Below are positions 2,297-21,170 of a stretch of 64,000 nt of DNA, piece by piece. The notes beneath the pieces are model-generated. The model saw nothing but the letters and a program-made list of their open reading frames with translations. It did no database searches and was not told where the DNA came from. The stretch comes from a virus, in IMG/VR virus record IMGVR_UViG_3300021964_000039, positions 1-64,000 of that record; one strand, 5' to 3'. A program made the translations under genes and the position numbers. Each line of letters starts with the position of its first letter. The stretch's first letter is position 1.

Positions 2297-5200
2297 ATGG
2301 CTGAATTTAAACTAGGTAGAATTAGATTTGTATGGAAAGGCACCTGGGCAACCACAACGGTGTATTACAAAGATGATGTTATTAGACTGGGTGGTCGTCT
2401 GTACATATGTATAACAGGACACACAAGTTCAGCTAATTTTGATACAGATTCAGCTAACTGGGAAACATTTAGTGATGGTACTACATGGAGAGGTCCTTGG
2501 ACTACTTCAACATATTACGGAATAAATGATATAGTAACTTACGGCGGATATTTGTATATCGCAAACGCAGGTCATACATCTGCAGCCACAAATGCTCTTG
2601 GTTTAGAAGATAATCAATCAGATTGGGATATATTTGCTGAAGGTTTTGATTGGCAAAATAATTGGGGTACAAGCACTAGATACAGAATTAATCAACTTGT
2701 AAAATATGGTGGAGCAGTATACCTATGTAATACAGGTCATACTTCTAATGCAGATCCAAATCTTGGTTTAGAAGCTGATTCCGCTAGTTGGGATTTGCTC
2801 GTTGAAGGACAAGAATGGAAATCCGATTGGACAATCAGCACAAAATATAAAAAATATGACATAGTAAAGTATGGTGGAACACTTTACATATGTAATACAG
2901 GACACGTATCAGCTGCTACAGATGCATTAGGCTTAGAAGATGATCAAGCTAAATGGGACATTTATCAGCAAGCATTTATATATCTGAGTAATTGGTTAAA
3001 CAATACAAGGTATAAAATAAATGATGTTGTTAGATATGGTGGAGATCTTTACATATGTACCCAAGGACATACTTCAGCTGCATTTCTTGAGGACAGTGTA
3101 GCAGGAAGTCTAGGACAAGATTCAGACAAATGGGAAATTTTTGTACCAGGACTACAATGGGACGATAGTTGGAGTCCTGAAACAGTTTATCAGCCAGGTG
3201 ATTTAGTTACATATGGAGGATACGTATATGTATCTCAAACAATTCACGTAGGTACAACTCCAAGTAACGGTAGTGACTGGCAAGTATTTACAACAGGATT
3301 TAAATTTAGAGGCGAGTGGGGAGAAGACTCAACCAACCAAGATTATAGAATAGGTGATGTAGTCAGACGAGGCGGATATACCTATATTGCAACGGTTGAC
3401 AATAATAATATTCCACCACCTGACGTTACAGCCTGGGATATTTTGAACACTGGCATATTATGGCAAGGTGATTGGACCAATGGAGTTATATATGCCGCAG
3501 GTGATGCTGTCAAATACGGAAATAACAGCTATATCTGTGTAGACGATCATACAAGTGATACTGCAACCAACAGACCAGATGTAGATATCAATGGTGATTT
3601 TTGGAACTTATTAGCGGGTGGTGCAGAATCTAGTGCTTTAACAACATCAGGCGACTTGTTATATTATGGTGGCGCAGGACCTACAAGGCTACCAATCGGA
3701 ACTATAGGACAGGCATTAACTGTTAATGCAAACGGAAATCCTGAATGGACTACTTTTGGAACATTAAACGATATTTGGTATGTCGCATTAGAAGGTACTG
3801 ATAATCCTAATCCGACTAATGGTGGAAACTTAGATCGACCGTGGCGTACTATAAAGTATGCTTGCCAACAAATAGATTTAGGTGCAAAAAATCCAAACGC
3901 AAAGCGTTTACTCGAACTAAACAGACAGTTTATACAACGAGAAGTAGTTGAATGGACAGATTATCAAATTGCAAACGATATATTACCTTTCACTAGTGCA
4001 TTTACCTATGATTCAACAAAATGTTATAGAGACATAGGGTACATAGTAGATGCTATGATATATGATATTACACATGGCGGAAACAAAAAAACTAGGGAAG
4101 CAGCAAGTATATATATTACCGGACCTGGACAATTCTATGTATTAGGACAAGAGGAAGAGACAGCAGCATCTATTGAATATGCTATTACTGTGATGGACGC
4201 TGTGTTGAATCAAACTGGACCGGCAACTAACTATCAACAAACTAACTCATACACTCCAGAAGTATTACAAATTACAAGTGGTCTTGTAGCAGAAGCAGGA
4301 ACTGTAGCAACTGTAACAAGTTATACTCAAAATATAGCAGATGTGGTAGCAGCCGGAACACTAGTCGATTTAGATGATCCTATTAGAGTTAATACAAGTA
4401 TTTTTGTTAAGACTGGTACGTTCTTAGAAACACTACCTATACCAGTTCCGGAATTAACTGCAATCGTAGGTGACGAGCTTAGAAGCACAAGAATTCAACC
4501 TAGAGGCAGCACAGTAGCAAGCGGAGATGTTACATACAGTCTAGCTGCTCTTGCACATCTTGAAAGTATAATAGGTGTCGTAGTCCAAGGCAATATTGTT
4601 ACTCCACAAACCAACAATAACGAAAGTCAAATTGCAGGTGTGGATGGTGTACCTTATGCTGATGCAACCGCGGCTACTACTATACAAAATCTTGTGCAAC
4701 AAGCACAGGATTATATTGATTACAGAGTAAACGGTGTATCAGGAGATTCAAGTGCTCCTGCATATGGTGGGTCAAACGATGGTACTGAAAACCAAAATAA
4801 TTACAATGCGGCTAGGCTTATTGAACTTAATAGAACTTTCTTAGTAGAAGATGTAATAAATTATATAGCTCAAACCTATCCAGCATACGTATACGATCAA
4901 GATCAATGTAGGAACGACCTAAATCATTACTTAACTGGATTTAAATGGGATCTACAATACGAAAGTAATTACAGAACGTTAAGTGCTGCTACTGCATATA
5001 TGAACGCCGTTGACGGAAGTTTAGAAGAAAATATGTTCTTATTAAGAAATGGAACAGGATTAAGAAATTGCACTGTTGACGGATTAACTGGTACATTGAG
5101 TGCAGCTAATGCATACGGAACTAGACGTCCAAGTGCAGGTGCATATGCATCATTAGATCCAGGTTGGGGACCAGATGATGAAAGATGCTGGATTACAGCA

Positions 5201-7129
5201 AGATCTCCTTATGTGCAAAATGTAACAACATTCGGTACAGGTTGTGTTGGATTAAAGATTGACGGTGATTTACATGCTGGCGGTAATGACTCTATTGTTG
5301 CAAACGATTTCACGCAGATTATAAGCGACGGTATAGGTGCTTGGGTTACAAACTTAGGACGTTCAGAGCTCGTATCGGTATTCTCATACTATGCTCACAT
5401 AGCTTACCTAGCAGAAAATGGTGGGAAAATACGTGCAACTAACGGTAACAACTCATACGGGGATTATGGATCCGTTGCAGAGGGTGTAGACAGCACTGAA
5501 AATCCTATCACCGCATCTGTAAACAACAGAAGTTTAGATGCACAGATATCAAGAGTGTTAGTCTCAGGAAGTGAAATTATACATGTAGAGTATAGCAATG
5601 CAGGTAGAGAATACACTACAGCAACTTACAACTTTACTGGTCCAGGATTTGGAGCCGCAGTATCTAGTGCAAACATTGAAAACGGCGGTGTATTTGAAGT
5701 TAGATTACGTAACCAAGCAGACGGTTCAACTGTTGGCGACACTTTTGGTGGTGAAGGTTACATAAGTAATGCTAACGTTGCGCAGGAAGGTGATACTACA
5801 ACACTCACACTTTCTGCTACTGAATCTGCTACAGCAGCATCTTATCAAGGAATGAGAATTGTTATTACAGCAGGTACAGGTGTTGGACAATATGGTTATA
5901 TACAAAGTTATGATCCTGCTACTAAGATTGCAACTATTTACAAAGATAGTGATGGCACAGCAGGTTGGGATACTTACAGAACGGGTGTAGCAATTGAAAG
6001 TACACTTAATGCTACTACACAATATATTGTAGAACCTAGAGTTACTTTTGCAGCCCCGGCAAGCGGATTATACGCTGACACAGCCAAAGCAAGAACAAGA
6101 GTTGCATCAAACAAAGTTGTAGAAATATTAATGATTGATCCAGGGAACGGATATACTTCAGCACCTGTATGTACAATTACTGATCCTAATGCTACACTAG
6201 AGGTGCCTATTGAAACAAGAATTGGAAACGGTGTTCTAAATCAGCCTACATTTAGTAACAGAGGAACAGGTTACACAACCAGTGCTTCTACTGTAACTGG
6301 CGATGGTTTCGCAGATTTATTCCAGAGTGGTTCTTCAATTTATGTTGAAGGATTAACTGAAGAACCAGATGCTGGATCTAATATAACTTTTGATAGTTTG
6401 CCGGGACAGTATTATAAGATTGTTACTATTAGAGAGTTAACAGGAACTCCAGATGGATTTGGCGGTTCAATTGCTCCTTACAGTGCTAACTTACAAATTA
6501 GTCCAGATTTAGGGATCGAAGAAGCTCCTAATCATGGCACAAATATTACTATCAGAAGAAGATTTAGTCAAGTAAGATTAACAGGACATGATTTCTTAGA
6601 TATCGGTACTGGTAACTTTGCTAACACAAATTATCCAAATTTACCATTAACTGATCCTGATCCAACATATGAAATTACAGAATCAGGAGGAGGACGAGTG
6701 TTCTACACAAGTACTGACCAAGATGGTAACTTTAGAGTTGGTGGCTTGTTTAATATTGAACAAGCAACTGGTATTGCAACACTCGATGTTGATGCTTTCA
6801 ATCTAGCAGGTTTGCAAGAACTTACTTTGGGTAATATTGCATTAGGATCAACTGGTGCAACAATTACAGAATTTAGTACTGATGGAACATTTACTGCAAA
6901 CTCAGATAATATTGTTCCTACACAAGCAGCAATTATAAGTTACATTGCTAGTCAAATAGGTGGCGGTGCAAGTTCTCTAAACGTAAACAGCTTAACAGCT
7001 GGTGTTGTGGAAATTAGTGGCCAACAAATAACTACAACAACTGGTGTTCCATTAAATATAACATCACCAGTAAATTTCACAGATAGTGTGAGAGGAACAC
7101 CTGTTGCACTAAGCTATTATTTAAGATAA
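2297..7129 (+). CDS. 1610-aa virion structural protein (N-terminal CBM5/12-like repeats, helical modules, beta-helix-like core, conserved C-terminal domain)
   Basis: About 8 repeats of W-x5-Y-x3-D-x-V-x-YGG-x2-YIC-x2-GH-x-S. C-terminal domain paralogous to the upstream ORF. SD GGAG and a TAAATA element upstream. Confidence 0.75.
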   Translation: MAEFKLGRIRFVWKGTWATTTVYYKDDVIRLGGRLYICITGHTSSANFDTDSANWETFSDGTTWRGPWTTSTYYGINDIVTYGGYLYIANAGHTSAATNALGLEDNQSDWDIFAEGFDWQNNWGTSTRYRINQLVKYGGAVYLCNTGHTSNADPNLGLEADSASWDLLVEGQEWKSDWTISTKYKKYDIVKYGGTLYICNTGHVSAATDALGLEDDQAKWDIYQQAFIYLSNWLNNTRYKINDVVRYGGDLYICTQGHTSAAFLEDSVAGSLGQDSDKWEIFVPGLQWDDSWSPETVYQPGDLVTYGGYVYVSQTIHVGTTPSNGSDWQVFTTGFKFRGEWGEDSTNQDYRIGDVVRRGGYTYIATVDNNNIPPPDVTAWDILNTGILWQGDWTNGVIYAAGDAVKYGNNSYICVDDHTSDTATNRPDVDINGDFWNLLAGGAESSALTTSGDLLYYGGAGPTRLPIGTIGQALTVNANGNPEWTTFGTLNDIWYVALEGTDNPNPTNGGNLDRPWRTIKYACQQIDLGAKNPNAKRLLELNRQFIQREVVEWTDYQIANDILPFTSAFTYDSTKCYRDIGYIVDAMIYDITHGGNKKTREAASIYITGPGQFYVLGQEEETAASIEYAITVMDAVLNQTGPATNYQQTNSYTPEVLQITSGLVAEAGTVATVTSYTQNIADVVAAGTLVDLDDPIRVNTSIFVKTGTFLETLPIPVPELTAIVGDELRSTRIQPRGSTVASGDVTYSLAALAHLESIIGVVVQGNIVTPQTNNNESQIAGVDGVPYADATAATTIQNLVQQAQDYIDYRVNGVSGDSSAPAYGGSNDGTENQNNYNAARLIELNRTFLVEDVINYIAQTYPAYVYDQDQCRNDLNHYLTGFKWDLQYESNYRTLSAATAYMNAVDGSLEENMFLLRNGTGLRNCTVDGLTGTLSAANAYGTRRPSAGAYASLDPGWGPDDERCWITARSPYVQNVTTFGTGCVGLKIDGDLHAGGNDSIVANDFTQIISDGIGAWVTNLGRSELVSVFSYYAHIAYLAENGGKIRATNGNNSYGDYGSVAEGVDSTENPITASVNNRSLDAQISRVLVSGSEIIHVEYSNAGREYTTATYNFTGPGFGAAVSSANIENGGVFEVRLRNQADGSTVGDTFGGEGYISNANVAQEGDTTTLTLSATESATAASYQGMRIVITAGTGVGQYGYIQSYDPATKIATIYKDSDGTAGWDTYRTGVAIESTLNATTQYIVEPRVTFAAPASGLYADTAKARTRVASNKVVEILMIDPGNGYTSAPVCTITDPNATLEVPIETRIGNGVLNQPTFSNRGTGYTTSASTVTGDGFADLFQSGSSIYVEGLTEEPDAGSNITFDSLPGQYYKIVTIRELTGTPDGFGGSIAPYSANLQISPDLGIEEAPNHGTNITIRRRFSQVRLTGHDFLDIGTGNFANTNYPNLPLTDPDPTYEITESGGGRVFYTSTDQDGNFRVGGLFNIEQATGIATLDVDAFNLAGLQELTLGNIALGSTGATITEFSTDGTFTANSDNIVPTQAAIISYIASQIGGGASSLNVNSLTAGVVEISGQQITTTTGVPLNITSPVNFTDSVRGTPVALSYYLR
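2330..3610 (+). repeat. Tandem ~50-aa Trp/Tyr-rich (chitin-binding CBM5/12-like) protein repeats
   Basis: Repeated YGGxxYICxxGHTS units in the translation. Confidence 0.65.
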
Positions 7130-7144
7130 CGGAGAAAAAACAAA

Positions 7145-7465
7145 ATGGCAAATGGAATATTAGCATCAGCAGACGTTACAGCGAGTACTCTTGTAACTCT
7201 GTATACAGTTCCGACAGATACATATACTGTTGCAAGTATAAATTTATGTAATCGGACAACAAATGAAGTGACAGTGAGAATAGCACTGTCTACAACCGGT
7301 ACACCAGGCAACGGAGAATACATAGAATATGATACTTCAGTTGTTGCTAACGGTGTGTTAGAACGCACAGGCATAGTATTAAATGACGGTGAAAATATTG
7401 TTGTTTATGCAGGTGGAACAGGCATAAGTGCAAACGTTTACGGTTTAGAAACACCAACAGTATAA
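7145..7465 (+). CDS. Small virion structural protein
   Basis: 106 aa, beta-rich, SD GGAG, inside the structural operon. Confidence 0.6.
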   Translation: MANGILASADVTASTLVTLYTVPTDTYTVASINLCNRTTNEVTVRIALSTTGTPGNGEYIEYDTSVVANGVLERTGIVLNDGENIVVYAGGTGISANVYGLETPTV

Positions 7466-7475
7466 GGAAAAAATA

Positions 7476-7928
7476 ATGGGTAGAAGAGTTACAACATCAA
7501 CGTCACCGGGAATAGTTCTTCCGCGTGGTACTGACGCTCAAAGACCAGCATCTGCATCTCCTGGAGATATTAGATATAATACAGATAGAAATTATATCGA
7601 ATTCTATAACAGCGTAAGTTGGCAGGTTGTAGGTGCATTTGAAAACGTTACTACTTCTTCTAATATAGTCGCATTAAACGGTCAACAAATTTTTGTAGAT
7701 ACAAGTGGAGGCACTGTACAAGTAACACTTCCTGCTTCTCCGTCAGTAGGTGATACAATAAGATTTTTTGATTTACGATTAACATTTGATACTAATGCGC
7801 TAACAATAGCAAGAAATGGTAATGTAATTCAAGGCGATGCAGCGGATATGACAGTATCAACAGAAGGTGCTTCCTTTGATTTAATATATTCAGGAACATC
7901 ATACGGTTGGCGAATATTCTCAGTATAA
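7476..7928 (+). CDS. Tail-fibre-associated protein
   Basis: LPRGTDAQRP...GDIRYNTD...IEFYN and VDTSGG..VTLPASPSVGD motifs typical of T4-like fibre segments. Confidence 0.6.
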   Translation: MGRRVTTSTSPGIVLPRGTDAQRPASASPGDIRYNTDRNYIEFYNSVSWQVVGAFENVTTSSNIVALNGQQIFVDTSGGTVQVTLPASPSVGDTIRFFDLRLTFDTNALTIARNGNVIQGDAADMTVSTEGASFDLIYSGTSYGWRIFSV

Positions 7929-7937
7929 GGAAAAAAA

Positions 7938-8774
7938 ATGGCTAGCTACGCAAGTTATAAGAAAATTACAACTGATAGAGTAGATCCGTTACCAAGTAAC
8001 AAACTTGCACCAGGTGCAGGAACTGCAAACTGTGTTGTTTGGATATACAATAACAGGGGGCTAACAAGGCAGAATTGTGCTAATGGCGGCGGATGTGTAT
8101 GTCAGGCGTGTGGAGCTTCTTGTACATGGACTGTTCCAGATAATGTTCATACAATAACATTTGAAATATGGAGCGGTGGAGGCGGTGGTGCCGGCGTAAG
8201 TTGCTGTAATTGCTGTTGGCACGGTCAACCCGGCGCAGGCGGCAACTATGCTATGAAAACTCTGAATGTTACACCTGGTGATACATATACAATATGTGCA
8301 GGAGGCTCATGGCCGTGTTCAAAGTCTCATACGTGTTTAGCAACAATGGGCTGTGCAAGTTACATTACAGGACCAGGATTAAGTAATTTTTGTGCGCAAG
8401 GCGGCTGTGGCGGTTGTATGCACGGTGGTAGTTGGGGACCACGTGTAAATAACGGCGGATGTGGAAATTGCGGTTGTTGTGGTTGCGGATTTCACGGTGC
8501 TGACTTCGGAGTAATGGGTACAGTAGGACAAATGTCAGGTGGAACAGGTTGTCATTGTAACGGAAGAACAGGATACAATGGTATGGCTCCATTTATTGGA
8601 ACAACCATGGCAAATTACACTACTGAAGCATGGTGTTCATGTGGCTGTTATATTACTTGGCCTGCAGGAGGCGGTACTACAGGGCAAAGTTCGTATTGCG
8701 GGGATAACGCACAATGTTGTGCCGGCGGATCCGGACAAGGAGGATCAGGAATTGTTAAGATTACAATGCAGTGA
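7938..8774 (+). CDS. Cys/Gly-rich putative fibre-tip/adhesin protein, paralog 1
   Basis: About 30 Cys in 278 aa. WTVP...FEIWSGGGGG...GAGG and terminal GGSGIVKIT glycine-rich domain. Confidence 0.65.
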   Translation: MASYASYKKITTDRVDPLPSNKLAPGAGTANCVVWIYNNRGLTRQNCANGGGCVCQACGASCTWTVPDNVHTITFEIWSGGGGGAGVSCCNCCWHGQPGAGGNYAMKTLNVTPGDTYTICAGGSWPCSKSHTCLATMGCASYITGPGLSNFCAQGGCGGCMHGGSWGPRVNNGGCGNCGCCGCGFHGADFGVMGTVGQMSGGTGCHCNGRTGYNGMAPFIGTTMANYTTEAWCSCGCYITWPAGGGTTGQSSYCGDNAQCCAGGSGQGGSGIVKITMQ

Positions 8775-8785
8775 TGGAGTATTAA

Positions 8786-9637
8786 ATGGCAAATTACGGT
8801 AATTATAAGAAAGTTATACCAGATCAATTTGAAGACGGTGCTTTAACAGCAGATAAACTAGCTCCGAAATCAACCAATCAATACTGCGTCTTTTATGTGT
8901 ATAATAATAGGGGATTCACTAGACAGTCATGTTCAAATGGCGGTGGGTGTATATGCCAAGCGTGTGGAGCTTCTTGTACATGGACAGTTCCTGCTAATGT
9001 ATCCAAAGCTATTTTTGAAATATGGAGCGGTGGCGGCGGCGGACCCGGCATCAACTGTTGTGGTACATGTAGTTTTGCTATCGGAGGTGCAGGCGGAAAT
9101 TATGCACTCAAATCTATATCTGTTACACCGGGAGACCAATATGCAATATGTGCCGGAGGTAGTTGGAATTGTGCTAGAGCATACGGTTGTTCAGCAAGTA
9201 TGGGCTGTGCAAGCTACGTGACTGGCAATAATTTGTCAAACTTTTGCGCTCAAGGTGCTCGCGGAGGTTGGATGTGTAATGGTGATGCATGGGGACCAAG
9301 AACCCACGGCACTTGTAATAACTGCGGAGCAGGCGGTTCAAACTGTGGATTTGCCGGTGCTGATTTTGGAATAAACGGCACCGTTGGTTGGAAAATGGGT
9401 CATTCAGGATGCCATTGTCAAGGCGCTGATTTACAGTTTTCAGGAACAGCACCTCTTATAGGAAAAGCAGTTGCTAATTCCCCTACCGAAGCATGGTGTT
9501 CGTGTGGTTGTTATATAAATTGGCCATCAGGAGGCGGTATGCCAGGAGTAAGTTCGTATTGCGGGGATTACGCACAATGTTGTGCAGCTGGGTCTGGTCA
9601 AGGAGGTTCAGGAATTGTTAAGATTACGTTTGCTTAA
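8786..9637 (+). CDS. Cys/Gly-rich putative fibre-tip/adhesin protein, paralog 2
   Basis: About 26 Cys in 283 aa, colinear with paralogs 1 and 3. Confidence 0.65.
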   Translation: MANYGNYKKVIPDQFEDGALTADKLAPKSTNQYCVFYVYNNRGFTRQSCSNGGGCICQACGASCTWTVPANVSKAIFEIWSGGGGGPGINCCGTCSFAIGGAGGNYALKSISVTPGDQYAICAGGSWNCARAYGCSASMGCASYVTGNNLSNFCAQGARGGWMCNGDAWGPRTHGTCNNCGAGGSNCGFAGADFGINGTVGWKMGHSGCHCQGADLQFSGTAPLIGKAVANSPTEAWCSCGCYINWPSGGGMPGVSSYCGDYAQCCAAGSGQGGSGIVKITFA

Positions 9638-9648
9638 GGAAAAAAATA

Positions 9649-10491
9649 ATGGCTAATTATGCAAGTTACAAAAAAGTAAATCCAGATCAAATCCCTGCTA
9701 ATGAACTACAGGCTGATAATTTTCAACCCGGTGCTGGAAATAATCTTGGTGTTTTGGTTGTAGGCCAGGCTAGAGGATTGTGTTGTCAGCAATGTGCTAA
9801 TGGCGGCGGATGTGTGTGCCAAGCATGTGGTGTGTCGTGTTCATGGACAGTTCCAGCTGGTACTAGCAGAGCAACATTTGAAGTTTGGAGCGGTGGCGGA
9901 TCTGGTGGCGGTGGTTGCCAGTGCTGTTGTTGTAAACACAGCCTAGGTGGTGCAGGCGGCACCTATGCTATAAAGAGTATTCCAGTCAGCCCTGGTGATA
10001 CATATACAATATGTGCTGGCGGAACATATAGATGTTCTGCAGTCAGACAATGTGTTGGCGGAATGGGTTGCGCAAGTTATGTAACTGGGCCTGGTTTGAG
10101 CAACTTCTGTGCCCAAGGAGGTTGTAGCGGTTGGGTTTGTGAAGGCGATGCATGGGGACCAAGAACTGGTAGAGCATGTGCTAATTGCGGTTGTTGCGGT
10201 TGTGGATTCCATGGTGCTGATTTTGGAATTATGGGAACTGTAGGTATGAGAACAGGCGGCGGCGGTTATAACTGTCGTAGAAAATCTGCACAAGGTGGCA
10301 ACCCTCCTGTTATTGGACAATGGGGCAACGTATCCGCATCAGAAGCATGGTGTTCTTGTGCATGTTATATTAAATGGCCTGCGGGAGGCGGAATGAGTGC
10401 AGTAGGAACATATGGTTGTTACACTTATGCAAACTGCTGTAACGCTGGTGGCCAAGGTGGCTCAGGAATAGTTAAAGTAACGTTTGCATAA
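9649..10491 (+). CDS. Cys/Gly-rich putative fibre-tip/adhesin protein, paralog 3
   Basis: About 31 Cys in 280 aa including CQCCCC, colinear with paralogs 1 and 2. Confidence 0.65.
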   Translation: MANYASYKKVNPDQIPANELQADNFQPGAGNNLGVLVVGQARGLCCQQCANGGGCVCQACGVSCSWTVPAGTSRATFEVWSGGGSGGGGCQCCCCKHSLGGAGGTYAIKSIPVSPGDTYTICAGGTYRCSAVRQCVGGMGCASYVTGPGLSNFCAQGGCSGWVCEGDAWGPRTGRACANCGCCGCGFHGADFGIMGTVGMRTGGGGYNCRRKSAQGGNPPVIGQWGNVSASEAWCSCACYIKWPAGGGMSAVGTYGCYTYANCCNAGGQGGSGIVKVTFA

Positions 10492-10494
10492 ATA
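10489..10494 (+). promoter_or_regulatory. Late promoter core TAAATA before the chaperone gene
   Basis: Recurrent motif, overlaps the stop codon. Confidence 0.55.
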
Positions 10495-10514
10495 TATACA
10501 AGGAGTATTAAGAC

Positions 10515-11246
10515 ATGGCAGACATAAGTGTTGAATTTACGTATAACGTGCCAGACAAATGGTTAGAAGATACGTTCGATGAAGGAAAAACGGATACGTA
10601 CACTTACGAGGGTCCGCAATTTCTCACATTTCAAATTGATAATGACACAGGCAGAGAAGTAGGATGGTGTTTAATACACCCTGAAGAATTAGAAAGACCT
10701 ACACCGCTCAATGTTACTAGAGTAACAGTTGACTGCGAGGAAGAACCGTTTCTATGTGAAATCGCAAATGATATAGGTAGAGATGATGCTGCAGAAATGA
10801 GATTTAATCGAACTTGGAGCATTGATGTTGCAGCTCCAGAAGGTTACGAACCTATTGAAATACCCGATGAATATGAACCACGGGACTTCTATGATGAATT
10901 CAACATTACATATGATTTCGATACCGATGAATTCAATATTCCAGTGCGTACTTGGATAACACTCAAAGGCATCAATCCTGACGATGTAACCTGGGAGCAT
11001 TTTAGGGCATATAGAAATAACTTACTAAAGGAAGCAGACGGCAGAGTAGATTCAACAATGCCGCAAGAGTTTATAGATCAATGGGTTGACTACAAAACTA
11101 AACTTCGAGATGCTCCGGAAACATTACAAGCAGCAGGTGTAACACCATTCCAAGCATCACTAATGTTGCCACCGGAACCGGAAGTAATGGAACAAACAAG
11201 TGTAGATCCATTTGAAGATCTATTAGGTGATCAAACTCCTACATAA
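10515..11246 (+). CDS. Tail fibre assembly chaperone-like protein
   Basis: C-terminal RAYRNNLLKEAD...W..YKTKLRDAP matches the phage tail assembly chaperone pattern. Directly follows the fibre genes. SD AGGAG. Confidence 0.6.
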   Translation: MADISVEFTYNVPDKWLEDTFDEGKTDTYTYEGPQFLTFQIDNDTGREVGWCLIHPEELERPTPLNVTRVTVDCEEEPFLCEIANDIGRDDAAEMRFNRTWSIDVAAPEGYEPIEIPDEYEPRDFYDEFNITYDFDTDEFNIPVRTWITLKGINPDDVTWEHFRAYRNNLLKEADGRVDSTMPQEFIDQWVDYKTKLRDAPETLQAAGVTPFQASLMLPPEPEVMEQTSVDPFEDLLGDQTPT

Positions 11247-11280
11247 ATCCACATTGTTAAAGAGCAGTGATTTTGTTCAA

Positions 11281-11327
11281 TAAATATCTTGCAATATTAA
11301 GTAAACTAGTGTAAACTAATATTGTAA
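11281..11327 (+). promoter_or_regulatory. Composite promoter of the enzyme cluster: TAAATA plus TTGCAA-17-TAAACT, with repeats
   Basis: TAAATA 11281-11286, TTGCAA 11289-11294, TAAACT 11312-11317. Confidence 0.45.
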
Positions 11328-11339
11328 TAGGAGATTAAA

Positions 11340-12389
11340 TTGAACAGATCCACTGCTTTTTTTATGAACGGCGGAGCAGGCCGTGTAATAAGTTCTATAC
11401 CTGCTTTCGAAAAATATGCTGAAGAAAATCCAGACGACAATTTCATTATTGTTTGTGAAGGAGGTATGGATTTTTTTAGAGGACATCCAACCTTGCACGG
11501 AAGATGTTATGACCATTGGCACAAAGGACTTTTTGAAGAACATATAAAGGATAGGAATTGTGTAAGTCCCGAACCTTACAGAGTTTGGGAATATTATAAT
11601 CAACAGTGTAGTTTAGCTCAAGCGTTTGATATTGCTATTTCAAACAAAGGAGTACGTGAGTTAAATATTCCAAAAATTTATCACAACAAACACGAAATAG
11701 TACAAGCATTTAATATACTAAAGGAAATTAAATCACAAACAGGATTGGATAAAGTTCTTGTAATTCAACCATTTGGAAGAACAACTGAAAATCATTCTGA
11801 TTTTATTATTGATGGTTCTAGCAGAAGTTTCACTTTAAATGACACAATAGAAATGATAGATGAATTTAAGAAAGACTATTCTGTGGTGCTTATGAGCGAA
11901 TTTCCAGTAACACTAGATGAAAAAAATACACATCCGGTTGCTATGCCAACTATTCCTGATTTAAGGATATGGAGTGCATTAATAGAAATTTCTGATCATT
12001 TCTTAGGATGCGATAGTGTTGGACAACATATTGCAAAAGCAGTAGGCACTACAGCAACAGTGGTTATTGGAAGCACATTTCCTGTTAATACTTCATATCC
12101 GGGACACAAAGACTTTGACATTTTTGATGTAGGAGAAGGAAAAAGAAAGTATAGCCCAATAAGACTTACTATGGAAGAAGAACAAGACAGATATAATGAT
12201 GAAGTAATGGAATTAACACAAAAAACAAAAAAAGAAATAATTGAAACAGTCAAAAAAAGATTAGGAAAAAGTACAAAATTTACCCAAAAAATGACTCAAA
12301 CGACTGCTCAGCAAAATGATGTTTGTCCTACACACGGAGTAGTACATAATCAGCAACCTGCACAAATATTAGGTAGAACAGGACAATAG
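11340..12389 (+). CDS. GT9-like (heptosyltransferase-like) glycosyltransferase
   Basis: N-terminal GGAGRVISSIPA and DHFLGCDSVGQHIAKAVGT resemble GT9 (g.GD...; d.fig.DSG..HlA.A.g). TTG start with SD AGGAG. Confidence 0.55.
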   Translation: MNRSTAFFMNGGAGRVISSIPAFEKYAEENPDDNFIIVCEGGMDFFRGHPTLHGRCYDHWHKGLFEEHIKDRNCVSPEPYRVWEYYNQQCSLAQAFDIAISNKGVRELNIPKIYHNKHEIVQAFNILKEIKSQTGLDKVLVIQPFGRTTENHSDFIIDGSSRSFTLNDTIEMIDEFKKDYSVVLMSEFPVTLDEKNTHPVAMPTIPDLRIWSALIEISDHFLGCDSVGQHIAKAVGTTATVVIGSTFPVNTSYPGHKDFDIFDVGEGKRKYSPIRLTMEEEQDRYNDEVMELTQKTKKEIIETVKKRLGKSTKFTQKMTQTTAQQNDVCPTHGVVHNQQPAQILGRTGQ

Positions 12390-12399
12390 GAGAACTTTT

Positions 12400-14193
12400 A
12401 TGCCACAATGGATAGCCGGAATAACTAGAGGACATAACGCTGGAGTTTGTTTGCTTAGAGACGGCGAAATAGTATTTTCTATTGAAGAAGAAAGACTATC
12501 CAGACAAAAATACGACGGCGGCCCCTTAGCGGCAATGCTAAAGATATTAGATTATACTGATAAACTTGACTACTTAGTTGTTGCCCATACACAACCTTTG
12601 TCACAAGCTCCGGCTATAGATTTTACAGGAGACAATGTCTATACAGGATTTGCTAGAAAACTTGGATTAATTGACCGCAAACAAGATTTAATTAATCATC
12701 CTCAAGTAATAGATTATTCCTTTGTCCATCATAAATTACATGCTAGTTGTGCCTTTTATAGATCTGGCTTTGAAAGTGCTACAGCAGTCATTGTTGACGG
12801 AGCAGGTTCATTTATTCCTATGAACTTTGGCTCTGATTCGGAAATGACTTGGGAGCTAGAAAGCTATTTTACATGCGAATATCCTGCAAAATTTAAGACT
12901 ATTTACAAGCATTTAGGAGGTAGAGGTCCTTGGTTAGGAGCCAAGATGCAAGTGTCTAGTTCTCGAGAAGGAGAGCAAGGTGAACATGAAATGATTATTG
13001 ACGATACCGGCGGTATAGTTAAAGGATACGAAGCTGTTACACAATACTGCGGTTGGGCACCTATCGAAGCAGGCAAGACTATGGGACTAGCACCTTACGG
13101 CAAACCAAATGATCTAATTCCTCCTATTTACACAGATGGCGGAGGTAGTGGTGAATGGAGAACTACTAATCGAAATTTAATTATACCTACATTTCCTAAC
13201 GGAGCTGCTGTAGCCGAAACAAGATTTACAGAATTAAATACTCCAGACGAGCCTATTGAAGATTTAACAAAATTACAAAATAGACGAGATTTAGCATATG
13301 CTGTACAAGCTGAAAGTCAACAAGAAGTATTAGATTTAATTATACAGGCTGTTGAGAAGACAGGAAACAAAAATGTTGTTTTAAGTGGAGGATATGGTTT
13401 AAATTGTGTAGCAAACTATTGGTATCTTGATAAGTTAAAGGAATATGATATCAACTTATATGTTGAACCTATATCAAGTGATGCAGGTACTGCTATTGGT
13501 GCAGCATTATTACATTATCATTTAATAGAAGAAGATAATTGTGTACGAGAGTACGGAGATAGTTTATATCTCGGACCAACATATACATATACCGAGTCAG
13601 AAGTAGACGAACTTATAGAAAAATATGATGGCGTATCTAAGTCAACAAATAAACAAGAGATTGCTAATTTAATAGCTGAAAAGAATATTGTTACAATTTT
13701 TCAAGGAGGGGCTGAAAGCGGACCTAGAGCATTAGGTAATAGAAGTATACTTTTTGATCCAACTTATGAAGACGGTAAAGACTTTGTAAATCAAGTAAAG
13801 CGCAGAGAATATTTCCGACCTTTTGCAGGTAGTATTTTACATGAACATGCACATGAATGGTTTGATATGAAAGGGTTGGAAGAGAGTCCTCATATGATGT
13901 ATGCTATGAACTGTCAGCCCGGCGTAGAAGAAAAGATTCCTTCAATTATTCATGTAGACGGAACTTGTAGAATACAAACAGTTAAACGTGAACAAAATCC
14001 ACATTACTATGACTTAATAAATGAATTTTATAAACTTAAAGATGTTCCTATAGTGTTTAATACAAGTTTTAATTTAGGTGGTGAACCGTTAGTAGAAACT
14101 TTAGATGATGCAGTCCGTACCCTAGTACATAGTGATATAGAATATCTATATCTTCCTGAATTAGAAAAACTTATCAAAATAGAAAACGAATGA
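12400..14193 (+). CDS. Carbamoyltransferase, NodU/CmcH/TobZ family
   Basis: GHNAG, EEERLSRQK, HHKLHA, GKTMGLAPYG, SGGYGLNCVAN, ESGPRALGNRSIL, KRREYFRPFA, HVDGTCRIQTV, NTSFNLGGEP. Confidence 0.93.
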   Translation: MPQWIAGITRGHNAGVCLLRDGEIVFSIEEERLSRQKYDGGPLAAMLKILDYTDKLDYLVVAHTQPLSQAPAIDFTGDNVYTGFARKLGLIDRKQDLINHPQVIDYSFVHHKLHASCAFYRSGFESATAVIVDGAGSFIPMNFGSDSEMTWELESYFTCEYPAKFKTIYKHLGGRGPWLGAKMQVSSSREGEQGEHEMIIDDTGGIVKGYEAVTQYCGWAPIEAGKTMGLAPYGKPNDLIPPIYTDGGGSGEWRTTNRNLIIPTFPNGAAVAETRFTELNTPDEPIEDLTKLQNRRDLAYAVQAESQQEVLDLIIQAVEKTGNKNVVLSGGYGLNCVANYWYLDKLKEYDINLYVEPISSDAGTAIGAALLHYHLIEEDNCVREYGDSLYLGPTYTYTESEVDELIEKYDGVSKSTNKQEIANLIAEKNIVTIFQGGAESGPRALGNRSILFDPTYEDGKDFVNQVKRREYFRPFAGSILHEHAHEWFDMKGLEESPHMMYAMNCQPGVEEKIPSIIHVDGTCRIQTVKREQNPHYYDLINEFYKLKDVPIVFNTSFNLGGEPLVETLDDAVRTLVHSDIEYLYLPELEKLIKIENE

Positions 14194-16292: not shown

Positions 16293-17337
16293 TCATAATG
16301 ACTGGGATCCTTTAGAGGAAATTTTTGTAGGAGTAGCGGATCACGCAAGAATTCCTACTATCGACGCAAGTACACATAGTTTTGGATTTGCAGACTTTTC
16401 TTATGATGATATTAAGGATTTAGAAGGACCAAGTCCGCAATGGGTTATAGATGAAGCAAATGAAGATTTAGATAACCTAGCAAATGAACTCCGTAAACTA
16501 GGTGTAATTGTAAGACGTCCAGAAGCAATCGATCATTCAAAATCATTTAAATCCCCAGATTGGGAAACTACAGGTTGGTATACATATTGTCCAAGAGATT
16601 TATTATTACCTTTAGATAATTTAATCATTGATTGTCCGGGAGCAATGAGAGCAAGACAGTACGAAACACTTGCATATCGTGATTTCTTATACGATGTAGT
16701 AGATAACGGTGGAGAATGGTTAAGTGCACCAAGACCTAGACTATTAGATAGTAGTTATCAACTAGATGATTTAAGTATTCCTACATTAACTAATGAAGAA
16801 ATAGTTTTTGATGCTCCTAATGTAGTTAGACTAGGTAAAGATTTAATTTATCAAGTTTCTAATTCAGGCAACTTGTGGGGATACAAATGGTTACGTAACT
16901 TGCTCGAACCACGTGGATACCGTATCCACCTAGCAGAAAAATTTTATAGTTATTCACATTTTGATTCAACTGTAATTCCTCTACGTCCAGGACTGGTATT
17001 GTTTAATGGCGATCGATGTACTCCTGATTGGTATCCACCTATATTTAAAGATTGGGATAAGATCTTCGTGCCCGGAGATCAAGTGATTGATATAGGCACA
17101 AACTTAGAAAACGGTGTTAGTCCTTGTTCAAAATATATAGGTTTAAACATGCTTAGTGTTAATGAAGAACTTGTAATTATAGATGAAAATCAACAATATG
17201 TCAGAAAAGAATTAGAAAAACATGGAATTGAAACTATTGGATTGCCCATGCGTCAAGCAAGAACATTAAGCGGCGGATTTCATTGTGTTACATTAGATAC
17301 AAAAAGAAAAGGACCCTGCGAGAATTATTTTGACTGA
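16276..17337 (+). CDS. Amidinotransferase, inosamine-phosphate amidinotransferase (StrB1)/AGAT family
   Basis: HNDWDPLEEIFVG, YCPRD, FDAPN (Asp), SHFDST (His), GGFHCVTLD (Cys): complete catalytic triad. Confidence 0.92.
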   Translation: MALVSSHNDWDPLEEIFVGVADHARIPTIDASTHSFGFADFSYDDIKDLEGPSPQWVIDEANEDLDNLANELRKLGVIVRRPEAIDHSKSFKSPDWETTGWYTYCPRDLLLPLDNLIIDCPGAMRARQYETLAYRDFLYDVVDNGGEWLSAPRPRLLDSSYQLDDLSIPTLTNEEIVFDAPNVVRLGKDLIYQVSNSGNLWGYKWLRNLLEPRGYRIHLAEKFYSYSHFDSTVIPLRPGLVLFNGDRCTPDWYPPIFKDWDKIFVPGDQVIDIGTNLENGVSPCSKYIGLNMLSVNEELVIIDENQQYVRKELEKHGIETIGLPMRQARTLSGGFHCVTLDTKRKGPCENYFD

Positions 17338-18193
17338 TAGAGGCTATCATATACCTTATCTTGAATGGATGATCACAACTAGTTGTGATCTAGCCTGTCC
17401 AGGATGTGATAGATTTATAGAATACGATCATAATTGGACTGAAAAATTACAAGACGTCAAACAGCGTATGGTTAAATGGTCAAAAAAGCTAGATCCAGAT
17501 AATCTGACATTAATAGGCGGTGAGCCGTTAATACATCCTGATTTATATGATATTATTAAACATGCTGCAAAATGCTTTGACCACAGCACTATAGAAATAT
17601 ATACTAACGGACTTTTACTACACAAAAAACCAAAATTATATAATACATTACGTAAGATTGGCAAAGCAAAGTTAAGTGTTACCTTACACAATAGGGATCC
17701 ACAAATAAGAAAATGGATTAATTATAACTTAGATAAACAATTTTTTCAAAAAGATAAATGGCGCAAAGTTGGAAAAAACTATTGGACTAGCGGAAATATT
17801 GAAATAGAAATAACCGACCCCACCAAAGGCGGTTGGTATGAATACCGCAAGAAAGTTAATGGACAACTGAAGCCATGGAATGATAATAATATAGAAAGTA
17901 GCTATAGTAACTGTACAGCTAACATTTATCCTATCATTTATAATAATAAGTTGTACAAGTGCCCTCCTATAAGTATGTTACTAACACAAGCAAAAAAATA
18001 TGGTTTGTTAAATGATAAAGATTGGGCACCTTATGTAAATTACACTCCATACAGTGTTGATGATAATTTAGAAGAATTTATTCAAAATATAAATTGTCCT
18101 CATGATATTTGCAATATGTGTCCTGCAAACCCTGTTCTTATAGAACAACCTGAGGCTGAAGTAAAGCATAATATGGAGAAATTAGTCATATGA
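17330..18193 (+). CDS. Radical SAM enzyme with C-terminal Cys cluster (SPASM/Twitch-like)
   Basis: CDLACPGC, GGEP, YTNG, later LYKCP and CNMCP. Confidence 0.85.
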   Translation: MTDRGYHIPYLEWMITTSCDLACPGCDRFIEYDHNWTEKLQDVKQRMVKWSKKLDPDNLTLIGGEPLIHPDLYDIIKHAAKCFDHSTIEIYTNGLLLHKKPKLYNTLRKIGKAKLSVTLHNRDPQIRKWINYNLDKQFFQKDKWRKVGKNYWTSGNIEIEITDPTKGGWYEYRKKVNGQLKPWNDNNIESSYSNCTANIYPIIYNNKLYKCPPISMLLTQAKKYGLLNDKDWAPYVNYTPYSVDDNLEEFIQNINCPHDICNMCPANPVLIEQPEAEVKHNMEKLVI

Positions 18194-19362
18194 AAAAAAT
18201 TCCTGTCTATGAGTTAAACCAAGCTGGCAGAGTATTTTCATTACTCACAGAAAATTTTTCAAATGTTTTAAACTTTACATATGGACATAATAATTATGAC
18301 ACAAAAAAATCTCTATTGTTTATTGAATATGTTGGGTTAGACTTAGGTGTATTAGATACATTAAGAGAGCTTTCTCTAAACACAAAGAAAAAATTCTTCT
18401 TGGTTATTGACGATACATATGAAGGATTACTTTCAAAAGAAGTACTACAAAAACATTTAGAATATATAGAATCATTACACGAAGTAATAGACGAATTTAT
18501 AATTTTATCAGCAAACAAAAGTATTTTTAATGAAATGGTAAATTTAGGTTATGAGAAAAACTTTATATACTTTAACACTCATTTATATCTTAGCAAGTAC
18601 GATGGTATTGATATACAAAATTCTACTGTCAGTGAAAGTGATTTACTAAGAAAGAAAAAATTTCTTTGTTTGAATAGACAAGAAAGACTTCATAGGATAC
18701 TAGTAGTAGACCATCTATGTAAGACTAAGCAACAAAGGCATGGTTTTATTAGTTGTCCGTTGTCCGACTATGGACTTGCATTTGAAAAAAAATTAGATTC
18801 AAGTTACTCGGAAGTTTTATTTTTTGATAAAGCATTATTAGATTACAAGTTCACTGATGAACAAAAAAATAGACTTAGTTCTATTTTACCTTTAGAATTA
18901 GACGTTCCAGATGAAATGCACAAAAGTTTGCGCAATGAAATGCCAGATACAAAAGCATATTTTGAAGAAAGTTATTTTAGTATAATCACTGAAGGTGATT
19001 TCTATACAGAAAACAAGCGCCAAATGTTCACAGAAAAAATTCTCAAAGCATTTATATATAAGCATCCTTTTGTAGTTGTAGGGTTGCCTGGCACATTATC
19101 ATTGCTAAGAGAACATGGATTTTTAACATTTCCGCAAATAATTGATGAGTCATATGATTCAATTGAAGACGATACAGAAAGATTAAATGCATGTTTAAGA
19201 GAGATTGACAAATTACTATCTTTAAATATTCACGAACTGAAAGATTTATATGAAAGTATAAACCCTATATTAGAACATAATAGAAAACTAGTGCTACAAT
19301 ATAATGCAATGCCAGCCCCGTCTTTACTAGTTAATATTATTCAGCAGTGGTTTTATAATTAA
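18190..19362 (+). CDS. Conserved phage protein, putative glycosyltransferase-like
   Basis: KKFLCLNR..R.HR, SYFSIITE, FTEKILK...HPF, GFLTF...IDESYD. A family that recurs in phage glyco-clusters; function inferred only. Confidence 0.45.
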   Translation: MKKIPVYELNQAGRVFSLLTENFSNVLNFTYGHNNYDTKKSLLFIEYVGLDLGVLDTLRELSLNTKKKFFLVIDDTYEGLLSKEVLQKHLEYIESLHEVIDEFIILSANKSIFNEMVNLGYEKNFIYFNTHLYLSKYDGIDIQNSTVSESDLLRKKKFLCLNRQERLHRILVVDHLCKTKQQRHGFISCPLSDYGLAFEKKLDSSYSEVLFFDKALLDYKFTDEQKNRLSSILPLELDVPDEMHKSLRNEMPDTKAYFEESYFSIITEGDFYTENKRQMFTEKILKAFIYKHPFVVVGLPGTLSLLREHGFLTFPQIIDESYDSIEDDTERLNACLREIDKLLSLNIHELKDLYESINPILEHNRKLVLQYNAMPAPSLLVNIIQQWFYN

Positions 19363-20281
19363 GATGATTGACTATAAATTCTTTATTAGGTATATCAATT
19401 ATTTCTAGTTCAGCTAACATAGCCTGTTTTTCTTCATCTTCTAAGTTTACAATATCTAATTCTCTTGGGTAAGTTAGGCAATTAATATACCATTCAAAAT
19501 CATTATCTACAACCCAAGAATGCAAGTCGCCTAGCATGAAATAGTTGTTACGATGTAATACTGTATTAATTTGTAATTGATATTTTTGTGCTGTAGTCCA
19601 TTCGACAAAATCTAATATTTTATCCCAATTTGCACCTTCACGGACTAAAGAATTATTAGTGCCATATCCGTCGATACTAAGAATAAATTTTACACTTTTG
19701 AATTGATCAAATATTTTTGTATCTTCAGGAATAAACATTCCATTTGTGTTATATATCAATTCAACTAAATTTTTTTCTTCTACTGTATTAATTACATTTA
19801 AATGTCTATTTGTTATTAATGGCTCCCCACCTAGAAATAATATTTTATTAACAGAGTTAGGCACATCAAAATCTTTAGTTTCTATTAGTTTGTATTTTGA
19901 CTGACCAAAAATTTCTTCTTCTTTTTTAATCCAACTTGTACTAAATTCACTATTACATCCGTCACATGCTAAATTACACAAATTATCTAATCCAATTTCT
20001 AAGTACTTTAAACTTATCTCATTTGTATTATATTTTTCATTAAATTCTTGTCTTAGACTTTTATGTCCAATACTTTCTTCATAGTAACATTTTTCACATT
20101 CAGCAATGTATTCGTTGTTTTGATTTTTTTCTCGTAACTTTTCATATGCATCATTTAATAACACGTTATCTAAATTTCCATCAAATATGCCAATAGGCTC
20201 CTTAAACCTACAGCAAGGATAAATTCTGTCTCCTGGCCTAATGTTTGTATGTTGCCAAAAAGCACTACATAGATGAGTCAT
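19337..20281 (-). CDS. Radical SAM enzyme with N-terminal SPASM/Twitch domain
   Basis: N-terminal LC...YPCC...CEKC, then CNLACDGC, GGEP, NTNG, SIDG. Confidence 0.85.
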   Translation of the reverse strand: MTHLCSAFWQHTNIRPGDRIYPCCRFKEPIGIFDGNLDNVLLNDAYEKLREKNQNNEYIAECEKCYYEESIGHKSLRQEFNEKYNTNEISLKYLEIGLDNLCNLACDGCNSEFSTSWIKKEEEIFGQSKYKLIETKDFDVPNSVNKILFLGGEPLITNRHLNVINTVEEKNLVELIYNTNGMFIPEDTKIFDQFKSVKFILSIDGYGTNNSLVREGANWDKILDFVEWTTAQKYQLQINTVLHRNNYFMLGDLHSWVVDNDFEWYINCLTYPRELDIVNLEDEEKQAMLAELEIIDIPNKEFIVNHLNYKTTAE

Positions 20282-21170
20282 AAGGCACTCCGTGTTTTTT
20301 AAATAATTTTAATATTTCTTTCTCTAATAATTTTTCTTTTTCGTGATATGTAATGATATTAGTATTTGCTAGTAATGCTCGTTTGTAACTTTCTGTAAAC
20401 ATGGCAGGCGGCATATTTTCTTTTATATTTCTATAAGGATCAAAAATACTTGTTGTTTTTGAAATATTGTCATCTATATGTTCAACACCTAAATTAACCA
20501 AGCATGGTATCTGTAAATCATTAGCATGTTGGTACACAATATCATAATTACAAATTACAGCGTCACAACAACTAACAATATAACCTAAATCATTAGATTT
20601 ATAATCATTATTGGGTAATAAATTTATATAGTTTACCTTGTCTGATAGAAATGTTTCTATGTGTTTAGCTGCTGTAGGTGAAAAACTGCGTAATTTTTTA
20701 TCATACCACATATCTTCGGTTACTATAAATTCTTCTTGCCAATTATCACTTAAATAATATGGTGCAACCAGTACATTACTGAAATTGTTTTTGTTTTGGT
20801 CTTGGATATATTTTTCTATTTGTAATTTTGTGTCTATAGTAGGCATATATGTTACAGGTGTTATGTATTGTTTTTTTCCTAATATGGTATAGCTAAGCCA
20901 GGCGTCTAAGCTAGGTTTGTTTTGTAGACATTCATACTGTGATTTATAATCTATAGTTGTTACTTCATTTGGAACAATTATATCTTCATAAACACGCTTA
21001 TCTTCCATGGTCCAAAATTTGTTACCTAATAGTGGGTTATTAAGGAATATACTATATTCTTGATCAAATATTACTGCAAAATCTTCACTATTTTCTGTAT
21101 ATTTTGCAAATATTTTTGCTGATATATAAGCAATAACATGATTACTATTTGTAAATAGAAACACTTTCAT
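20265..21170 (-). CDS. Divergent paralog of the GT9-like protein at 11340
   Basis: Colinear with 11340..12389: VLVAPY vs VLVIQPF, LRSFS vs SRSFT, CDAVIC vs SDHFLGC, SIFDP vs DIFDV. Confidence 0.45.
   Translation of the reverse strand: MKVFLFTNSNHVIAYISAKIFAKYTENSEDFAVIFDQEYSIFLNNPLLGNKFWTMEDKRVYEDIIVPNEVTTIDYKSQYECLQNKPSLDAWLSYTILGKKQYITPVTYMPTIDTKLQIEKYIQDQNKNNFSNVLVAPYYLSDNWQEEFIVTEDMWYDKKLRSFSPTAAKHIETFLSDKVNYINLLPNNDYKSNDLGYIVSCCDAVICNYDIVYQHANDLQIPCLVNLGVEHIDDNISKTTSIFDPYRNIKENMPPAMFTESYKRALLANTNIITYHEKEKLLEKEILKLFKKHGVPYDSSM

Follow-up and report, generated by a model that had tools for sequence, protein, structure and literature searches.

Three cysteine-rich genes in a cyanophage fibre module

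The window analysed here is a 64,000-nucleotide stretch, the first 64 kb of an 80-kb viral record in IMG/VR (IMGVR_UViG_3300021964_000039), and it carries three tandem plus-strand open reading frames (ORFs), at 7938-8774, 8786-9637 and 9649-10491, that encode paralogous glycine-rich proteins with a very high cysteine content. Copy A (7938..8774), annotated here as a putative Cys-rich head protein of the tumour necrosis factor (TNF)-like/glycine-rich kind, has 278 aa with 30 Cys (10.8%) and 59 Gly. The putative Cys-rich head proteins copy B (8786..9637; 283 aa, 26 Cys or 9.2%, 54 Gly) and copy C (9649..10491; 280 aa, 31 Cys or 11.1%, 60 Gly) are 64% and 58% identical to copy A, respectively, and the Gly content of the three copies is 19-21%. 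The coordinates are exactly those of a first-pass annotation of the stretch, made from the sequence by a model, which had described three colinear paralogs of about 280 aa with about 26-31 Cys each. The Cys motifs it listed (CxCxxC, CCxCC, CGCCGC and WCSCGC) are likewise present, as CVCQAC, CCNCC, CGNCGCCGC/CANCGCCGC and WCSCGC, the last as the variant WCSCAC in copy C. The median Cys content over the 55 ORFs of at least 150 aa in the window is 1.0%, and the richest ORF after the triplet reaches 3.3%, so the enrichment is real and specific to the three genes. Histidine is scarce in all three proteins, with 2-6 residues per chain.

The source is an uncultured estuarine T4-like cyanophage. Near-identical DNA to positions 7400-11300 was found mainly in estuary metagenome runs from several studies, which argues for an estuarine rather than an open-ocean phage; three runs labelled soil metagenome contain 44-74% of the words of this segment. 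The sequencing runs listed as sharing window DNA included no RNA runs, and megablast against cultured phages returned no near-identical record.

The triplet lies inside a fibre module whose order is constant over the 79 close-family loci: long fibre, 106-aa protein, connector, copies A, B and C, chaperone, a gene resembling glycosyltransferase family 9 (GT9) and a carbamoyltransferase. The module of the window begins with a long tail fibre of 1610 aa (2297..7129, plus strand; phrog_9851 'tail fiber protein', E 7e-211) that is homologous to SSSM7_113 of cyanophage S-SSM7. It is followed by a small conserved protein of 106 aa (7145..7465, plus strand; phrog_11338 'tail fiber protein', E 7e-10), homologues of which stand upstream of the triplet in related loci, S-CAM3 gp160 and P-SSM2 PSSM2_302 among them. 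The gene directly upstream of the triplet, in the window as in related loci, encodes a 150-aa connector with a T4 gp9/gp10 N-terminal-like domain (7476..7928, plus strand; PF07880, E 1.4e-6, above the cut-off). The C-terminal 139 residues of SSSM7_113, the 1477-aa fibre of S-SSM7, are 50% identical to this protein (E 2e-40). In that phage, fibre and connector are thus fused into one polypeptide with the connector at its C-terminal end, and we regard the connector as the probable distal end of the long fibre.

Downstream of the triplet, a 243-aa tail-fibre assembly chaperone is encoded at 10515..11246 on the plus strand (PF16778, Phage_tail_APC; phrog_4912 'tail fiber assembly', E 1.8e-5). PF16778 matched 30 of 30 orthologues of this protein (best E 1.8e-10), and in 122 of 125 loci the triplet is immediately followed by a homologue. 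The AlphaFold2 model of the chaperone (predicted local distance difference test, pLDDT, 90.8) combines a beta domain at the N-terminus with helices at the C-terminus, a modular plan that it shares with gp25 of the cyanophage Pam3; Foldseek and VIA-align searches with the model gave no convincing fold match, Pam3 gp25 included. The placement described in the first-pass annotation, after fibre genes and before a chaperone and a radical S-adenosylmethionine (SAM)/oxygenase cluster, is therefore correct, the first radical SAM gene lying 6.8 kb beyond the triplet. In S-SSM7 (locus L001), an annotated 109-aa coding sequence (SSSM7_117, 12542-12871) shares DNA with the third Cys-rich gene but is read in a different frame, and it is probably spurious.

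Predicted fold and closest known relatives

Family searches placed the three proteins in a large and scarcely described group. Copy A matches PF21722 (Gly_rich_2) with 25.8 bits at a cut-off of 24.3, while copies B and C gave no match to it at E 0.1; at E 0.01 PF21722 matched 14 of 51 close homologues, and most of them do not reach the Pfam threshold. Against phrog_4205, a family with no function label, each of the three copies has a match, with E-values of 1e-29 (A), 2e-27 (B) and 7e-31 (C). We counted 233 close homologues in 90% clusters and 471 representative clusters in an exhaustive search, and more than 560 IMG/VR stretches encode relatives, and a head made of three different chains would matter for a large group of uncultured aquatic T4-like cyanophages. 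Our literature search turned up no publication that deals with PF21722, with Cys-rich fibre proteins of cyanophages or with the virion proteomes of carrier phages, and the phages with virion proteomes, S-PM2, Syn9 and S-SM1, are not among the cultured phages with Cys-rich members.

The AlphaFold2 model of copy A, built with 51 homologues (pLDDT 70.9; predicted template modelling score 0.71), predicts a TNF-like jelly roll in which the loops between strands rise into a glycine-rich lattice. Its closest solved relative is the fibre protein gp24 of Pam3 (7ypx_A), matched by VIA-align with Z 17.7 over 200 residues (root-mean-square deviation 3.1) and by Foldseek with E 1.3e-5. Further VIA-align matches were the Bxb1 tail-tip chain 9d93_Qa (Z 11.8) and glycine-rich domains of ALK (Z 7.4-9.8, the highest for 7nx3_A), and weak ones were C1q and TNF-family heads (Z 3.2-3.7). 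At the sequence level, a profile of the close family had no match among PDB sequences at E 10, and a wider profile of divergent members matched only RemZ (residues 4-198, E 1.3e-3).

Pam3 gp24 forms a trimer in which a helical shaft at the N-terminus leads to a TNF-like domain and, distally, to a glycine-rich domain, the loop tips of which are thought to bind the receptor, and it is folded by its downstream chaperone gp25 in a 3:3 complex (PMC9608196). The gp24/gp25 system (PDB 7YPX, 7YFW; PMC9608196, PMC9942802) resembles the triplet in the predicted TNF-like and glycine-rich fold, in the Tfa-type chaperone gene directly downstream and in GGGGxGG-type motifs in the first and last loops. The GGGGGAG (80-86) and GGSGQGGSG (263-271) segments of copy A, conserved in all three copies, would correspond to these motifs of gp24 (PMC9608196). 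Sequence identity between the triplet proteins and gp24 is only about 18-20%. Pam3 is a freshwater myocyanophage in which gp24 is a single gene whose product trimerises through its long helical shaft into a homotrimer, whereas in the window there are three genes that have differentiated, and their products lack the helical shaft and carry a short conserved motif at the N-terminus. The two also differ in Cys, which makes up about 10% of the triplet proteins; the only Cys of gp24 named in the Pam3 papers searched is Cys28, the residue that connects fibre and wedge.

Other relatives show that the scaffold exists without the cysteines. RemZ of Flavobacterium (PDB 8GL8, chain D) shares the PF21722 domain with copy A, but its 195 aligned residues hold no Cys, with Gly, Ala or Ser where the phage proteins have CC or CCC. 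In the cultured cyanomyovirus Syn9, gp36, gp38 and gp39 (locus L165, 13856-17328) are glycine-rich like the triplet proteins and also follow fibre genes, and gp38 has the same predicted fold (BFVD, E 4.2e-8), yet these proteins have only 0.8-2.5% Cys (gp36 2.5%, gp38 0.8%), so that in marine cyanomyoviruses this fold does not require an enrichment in Cys. Because relatives with the same domain are not Cys-rich, we consider the cysteines an addition to the scaffold within the triplet phage clade. Syn9 gp39 itself resembles gp38 after an internal duplication or a frameshift.

The first-pass annotation had likened the proteins to the polyglycine adhesin gp38 of T-even phages. The analogy is fair in that the gp38 gene follows the long fibre gene and its product, a small adhesin rich in glycine, sits at the distal tip and has variable loops between glycine motifs; unlike the triplet, however, gp38 is the product of a single gene and is not Cys-rich. 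The gp38 of S16 is a polyglycine-II sandwich that caps the tip of gp37 and has a beta-helix middle domain, not a TNF-like one (PMC9608196); gp38-type adhesins cap gp37 as monomers. gp38 (6F45) was not among the fold matches listed for the copy A model, in which Pam3 gp24 is the closest solved relative. The broader proposal of that annotation, a fibre tip, is well supported by the fold, the synteny and the chaperone. Together, these results identify the triplet as a Cys-rich, three-gene form of a fibre-head type already known in phages.

Copy number and proposed assembly of the three chains

After a second scan with a divergent subfamily, we determined the copy number with a family hidden Markov model, keeping the loci with at least 1 kb on both sides. 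Exactly three copies were present in 104 of 105 loci with intact flanks; when the triplets of these loci are grouped at 90%, 70% and 50% identity, 57, 27 and 10 distinct ones are left. In the close-family retrieval, three complete copies were found in 69 of 79 loci, and from the coordinates a contig end adjoins the cluster in the other 12 close-family loci. Triplets occur in the cultured phages S-SSM7, Sf-FS3 and S-CAM3. Within the window's type, the 37 distinct loci of the main lineage resolve into position-specific clades for genes 1, 2 and 3 with support of 0.98-1.0, and position-specific clades also appear in a deep tree, whose support values were not read, in five lineages of the MP/MGR/MAR superclade and in the S-CAM3 type. 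Between superclades, the three copies of one genome also group together, as they do in a few individual genomes, which indicates that the triplication was repeated or that the copies were homogenised. In the window, a search for gene conversion found no long identical DNA blocks among the copies, the shared blocks being 63-82% identical. Either way, the number three is kept or regained.

On balance, we favour the reading that the three genes encode the three chains of a receptor-binding head of the Pam3 gp24 type, probably a mixed trimer with Cys-braced glycine loops. Four observations stand behind it: the fold given by the model, an order of genes that is fixed, a connector that in S-SSM7 forms part of the fibre, and a copy number that is almost always three, also in very divergent lineages. 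Since the fold is trimeric in the solved relative, and since three differentiated genes are kept at that number and in a conserved order, the most likely assembly would be a mixed A-B-C trimer to which each gene contributes a single chain. Such a head would fold on the downstream chaperone, which would then depart as Pam3 gp25 does, and would dock on the connector through its short conserved N-terminus (MA.Y.SYKK). The approximately 25 conserved cysteines, nearly all of them in the glycine loops and at strand ends, may brace the loops, leaving the variable residues between them to contact the host receptor. The first-pass term 'heteromeric' thus has strong comparative support in the copy number.

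In its strictest form, the proposal is an obligate A-B-C heterotrimeric head similar to that of complement C1q, with its cysteines in a network of disulfides or metal-thiolates and possibly decorated by the GT9-like and carbamoyltransferase enzymes; we advance this version only tentatively. The A, B and C chains of C1q are products of three tandem genes and form a heterotrimeric TNF-like head. As a working analogy, C1q resembles the triplet in its three tandem paralogous genes and its TNF/C1q-type jelly roll, and it differs in having collagen stalks, no glycine-rich lattice and no detectable sequence relationship, the heterotrimer on the phage side being deduced. Phage fibres and their receptor-binding heads normally consist of three copies of a single gene product, and no other C1q-like heterotrimeric head is known in phage fibres. 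If the three-chain head is real, it would change how host range is encoded and evolves, with three co-evolving surfaces in place of one.

Several observations weigh against the three-chain head. The model of copy A is moderately confident overall and worst in the Cys-rich loops (91-93 and 163-174), and the presence of the proteins in the virion is a prediction from fold and synteny. Nothing corresponds to the N-terminal helical shaft through which Pam3 gp24 trimerises: residues 1-30 of copy A, which begin with the conserved motif, are of low confidence with only two 3-residue helices, while P-SSM2-type relatives carry a long N-terminal extension. The copies of the window, S-SSM7, L012 and L058 group by genome in the tree, so position-specific roles are not evident everywhere. 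P-SSM2, the sole exception among the loci with intact flanks, has two copies instead of three, and in one subfamily each copy is followed by a small ORF of its own, an arrangement that fits separate heads equally well. Finally, Cys counts have no even bias, with 117 even against 102 odd proteins and with sums of 85-91 per triplet that show no even preference, so not all cysteines are in obligate intramolecular pairs.

The strongest competing explanation, which we judge unlikely but serious, is that each gene encodes its own homotrimeric head, with a different receptor and its own site on a branched connector. Multi-tailspike phages dock separate receptor-binding proteins in this manner by gp10-like adaptors, and the upstream connector has a gp9/gp10 N-terminal-like domain. 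All copies evolve at similar rates, each with variable loop segments, and in loci of the L087 type every copy is followed by an ORF of about 150-170 aa that may encode a chaperone for that copy. Pam3 gp24 is also homotrimeric (PMC9608196). Against separate heads, the number stays at three across 10 lineages that are less than 50% identical, a single chaperone gene serves all three copies in most lineages, and one N-terminal docking motif is common to all three copies in the window's type. Arrays of independent receptor-binding proteins, moreover, usually gain and lose members. We accordingly keep the mixed trimer as the favoured assembly.

Two kinds of locus depart from the common layout. At P-SSM2 (locus L002, 7725-10591; PSSM2_304-306), the copies are 355-356 aa long with 36 Cys each and have long N-terminal extensions, and a 225-aa protein without Cys lies between them. 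At L087 (3598-7187) and L088 (3504-7123), every Cys-rich gene has its own downstream ORF of 146-169 aa, perhaps encoding dedicated chaperones.

Proposed cysteine bracing and the neighbouring enzymes

About 25 cysteines are conserved in the close family, and 13 are conserved in both close and distant members (62, 89, 90, 120, 133, 152, 160, 175, 178, 183, 207, 233 and 261 in copy A). In the copy A model, 26 of the 30 Cys fall outside the predicted strands, in glycine-rich loops. Covariation among cysteines was noisy in the distant set, and in the close set only two pairs stood out: the CxxC pair C55/C58 is gained or lost as a unit (phi 0.89; both present in 44 sequences, neither in 200, only one in 9), and C115 and C146 are mutually exclusive, being present together in 0 of 253. 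Both patterns fit disulfide partners and metal ligands alike.

For the favoured head, we prefer bracing by disulfides after release, with metal binding as its main rival; the first-pass annotation had listed both options. Phage assembly takes place in a reducing cytoplasm, and the disulfides would most likely form once the virion exits it, metal-thiolate bonds being the alternative. The fibres of Pam3 virions are disulfide-linked to the wedge (PMC9942802), so disulfides do occur in a cyanophage virion, and neighbouring glycine strands in Pam3 lie about 5 Å apart (PMC9608196), a spacing that would suit disulfide staples. A search for thiol oxidases of the Erv1/ALR family (PF04777) gave no match, but the control genomes gave none either; glutaredoxins, present in S-SSM7 and in one long contig among those searched, are equally uninformative.

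The metal alternative, which we regard as rather unlikely, holds that the cysteines bind Zn or Fe/Fe-S and that metal-thiolate clusters hold the loops, and it is compatible with either assembly. It would account for the Cys counts without even-number bias, for the common CxxC and CxC motifs, for the joint conservation of C160, C175, C178 and C183 in distant members and for the coming and going of C55/C58 as one unit, and assembly in a reducing cytoplasm would also suit it. On the other hand, the known metal sites of phage fibres use His on the threefold axis, and His is scarce here. Model confidence in the Cys-rich loops is low, not high, and the roughly 90 Cys per triplet would demand many metal ions per virion. 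This number of cysteines, ten times the norm for this phage, makes the triplet a tractable case for studying how virions acquire disulfides or metals, and cultured carriers exist in S-CAM1/3, S-SSM7, Sf-FS3 and P-SSM2.

Two sugar-related genes complete the module. The first (11340..12389, plus strand) encodes a 349-aa GT9-like, that is, heptosyltransferase-like, protein: PF01075 (glycosyltransferase family 9) matches 5 of 12 orthologues with a best E of 1.1e-4, the window copy itself has a weak RfaQ hint (E 1.6e-3), and a search against PDB sequences gave no match. Of 125 loci, 120 have a homologue of this gene on the downstream side of the triplet, with a median separation of 0.9 kb. The gene occurs together with Cys-rich proteins in the cultured cyanophages S-SSM7, S-SSM6a, Sf-FS3, S-CAM1/3 and P-SSM2/5 (S-CAM1 itself was not read for this co-occurrence), and genes of the ADP-heptose pathway follow in S-SSM7, P-SSM2 and S-CAM3. 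The second (12400..14193, plus strand) encodes a NodU/Nol-type carbamoyltransferase (PF16861, E 1.4e-58; PF02543, E 7.5e-26) that is syntenic in related loci, yet is also present in many cyanophages without the triplet.

These enzymes may decorate either the fibre or the host surface. Glycosylation of the head proteins or fibre by the GT9-like enzyme, perhaps with heptose made by the phage and with the carbamoyltransferase decorating the sugar, would be compatible with the three-chain head; we nevertheless find it doubtful. The recurrence of the GT9-like gene after the triplet and chaperone, its presence in the same cultured phages as the Cys-rich proteins and the ADP-heptose genes all speak for it, and bacterial GT9-type heptosyltransferases that modify adhesins exist (TibC/AAH). 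Against it stand the weakness of the GT9 assignment, the carriage of the carbamoyltransferase by many phages lacking the triplet and the prospect that the enzymes alter surface glycans of the host instead. The constant link of the GT9-like gene to the module gives a concrete, testable role to the lipopolysaccharide (LPS) gene clusters of cyanophages, and Sullivan et al. (2010) left the function of the 'LPS gene clusters' of large cyanophages open (PMC3037559).

Further downstream, the window has an enzyme cluster with oxygenase and radical SAM domains and a weak aminotransferase-like match. The radical SAM gene at 17330-18193 is followed by a 314-aa ORF at 19337-20281 on the minus strand with weak radical SAM and SPASM matches, and the GT9-like gene, the carbamoyltransferase, a 2-oxoglutarate (2OG) oxygenase and other enzymes separate the triplet from both. 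The first-pass annotation had suggested that the triplet proteins are substrates of these adjacent radical SAM/SPASM enzymes, which would install thioether or similar cross-links, with co-occurrence across genomes as a check. We consider this very improbable, even though the two genes, one of them with a SPASM match, lie 6.8-9.8 kb downstream and have similarly placed homologues in L010, L024, L026 and L056. Among 50 related loci for which 8 kb downstream are available, only 4 encode a homologue of one or the other gene, and in other long contigs radical SAM genes are 70-100 kb from the triplet. Cys-rich proteins of the triplet family are encoded by S-SSM7, S-CAM3, P-SSM2 and G006, a 100%-complete IMG/VR record, and a search at E 1e-3 found PF04055 absent from these four complete genomes. 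The Cys-rich proteins thus occur independently of radical SAM enzymes, which refutes cross-linking as a general mechanism, and the link to radical SAM genes belongs to the sub-lineage of the window rather than to the family of Cys-rich proteins. A sactipeptide-like ribosomally synthesised and post-translationally modified peptide was likewise rejected, as there is no short leader/core precursor and the 278-283-aa proteins have a full structural-domain fold. In the ORF at 19337-20281, the SPASM match (residues 5-66) precedes the radical SAM core (101-243), the reverse of the usual order, and the ORF overlaps the upstream ORF at 20265-21170 by 17 nt.

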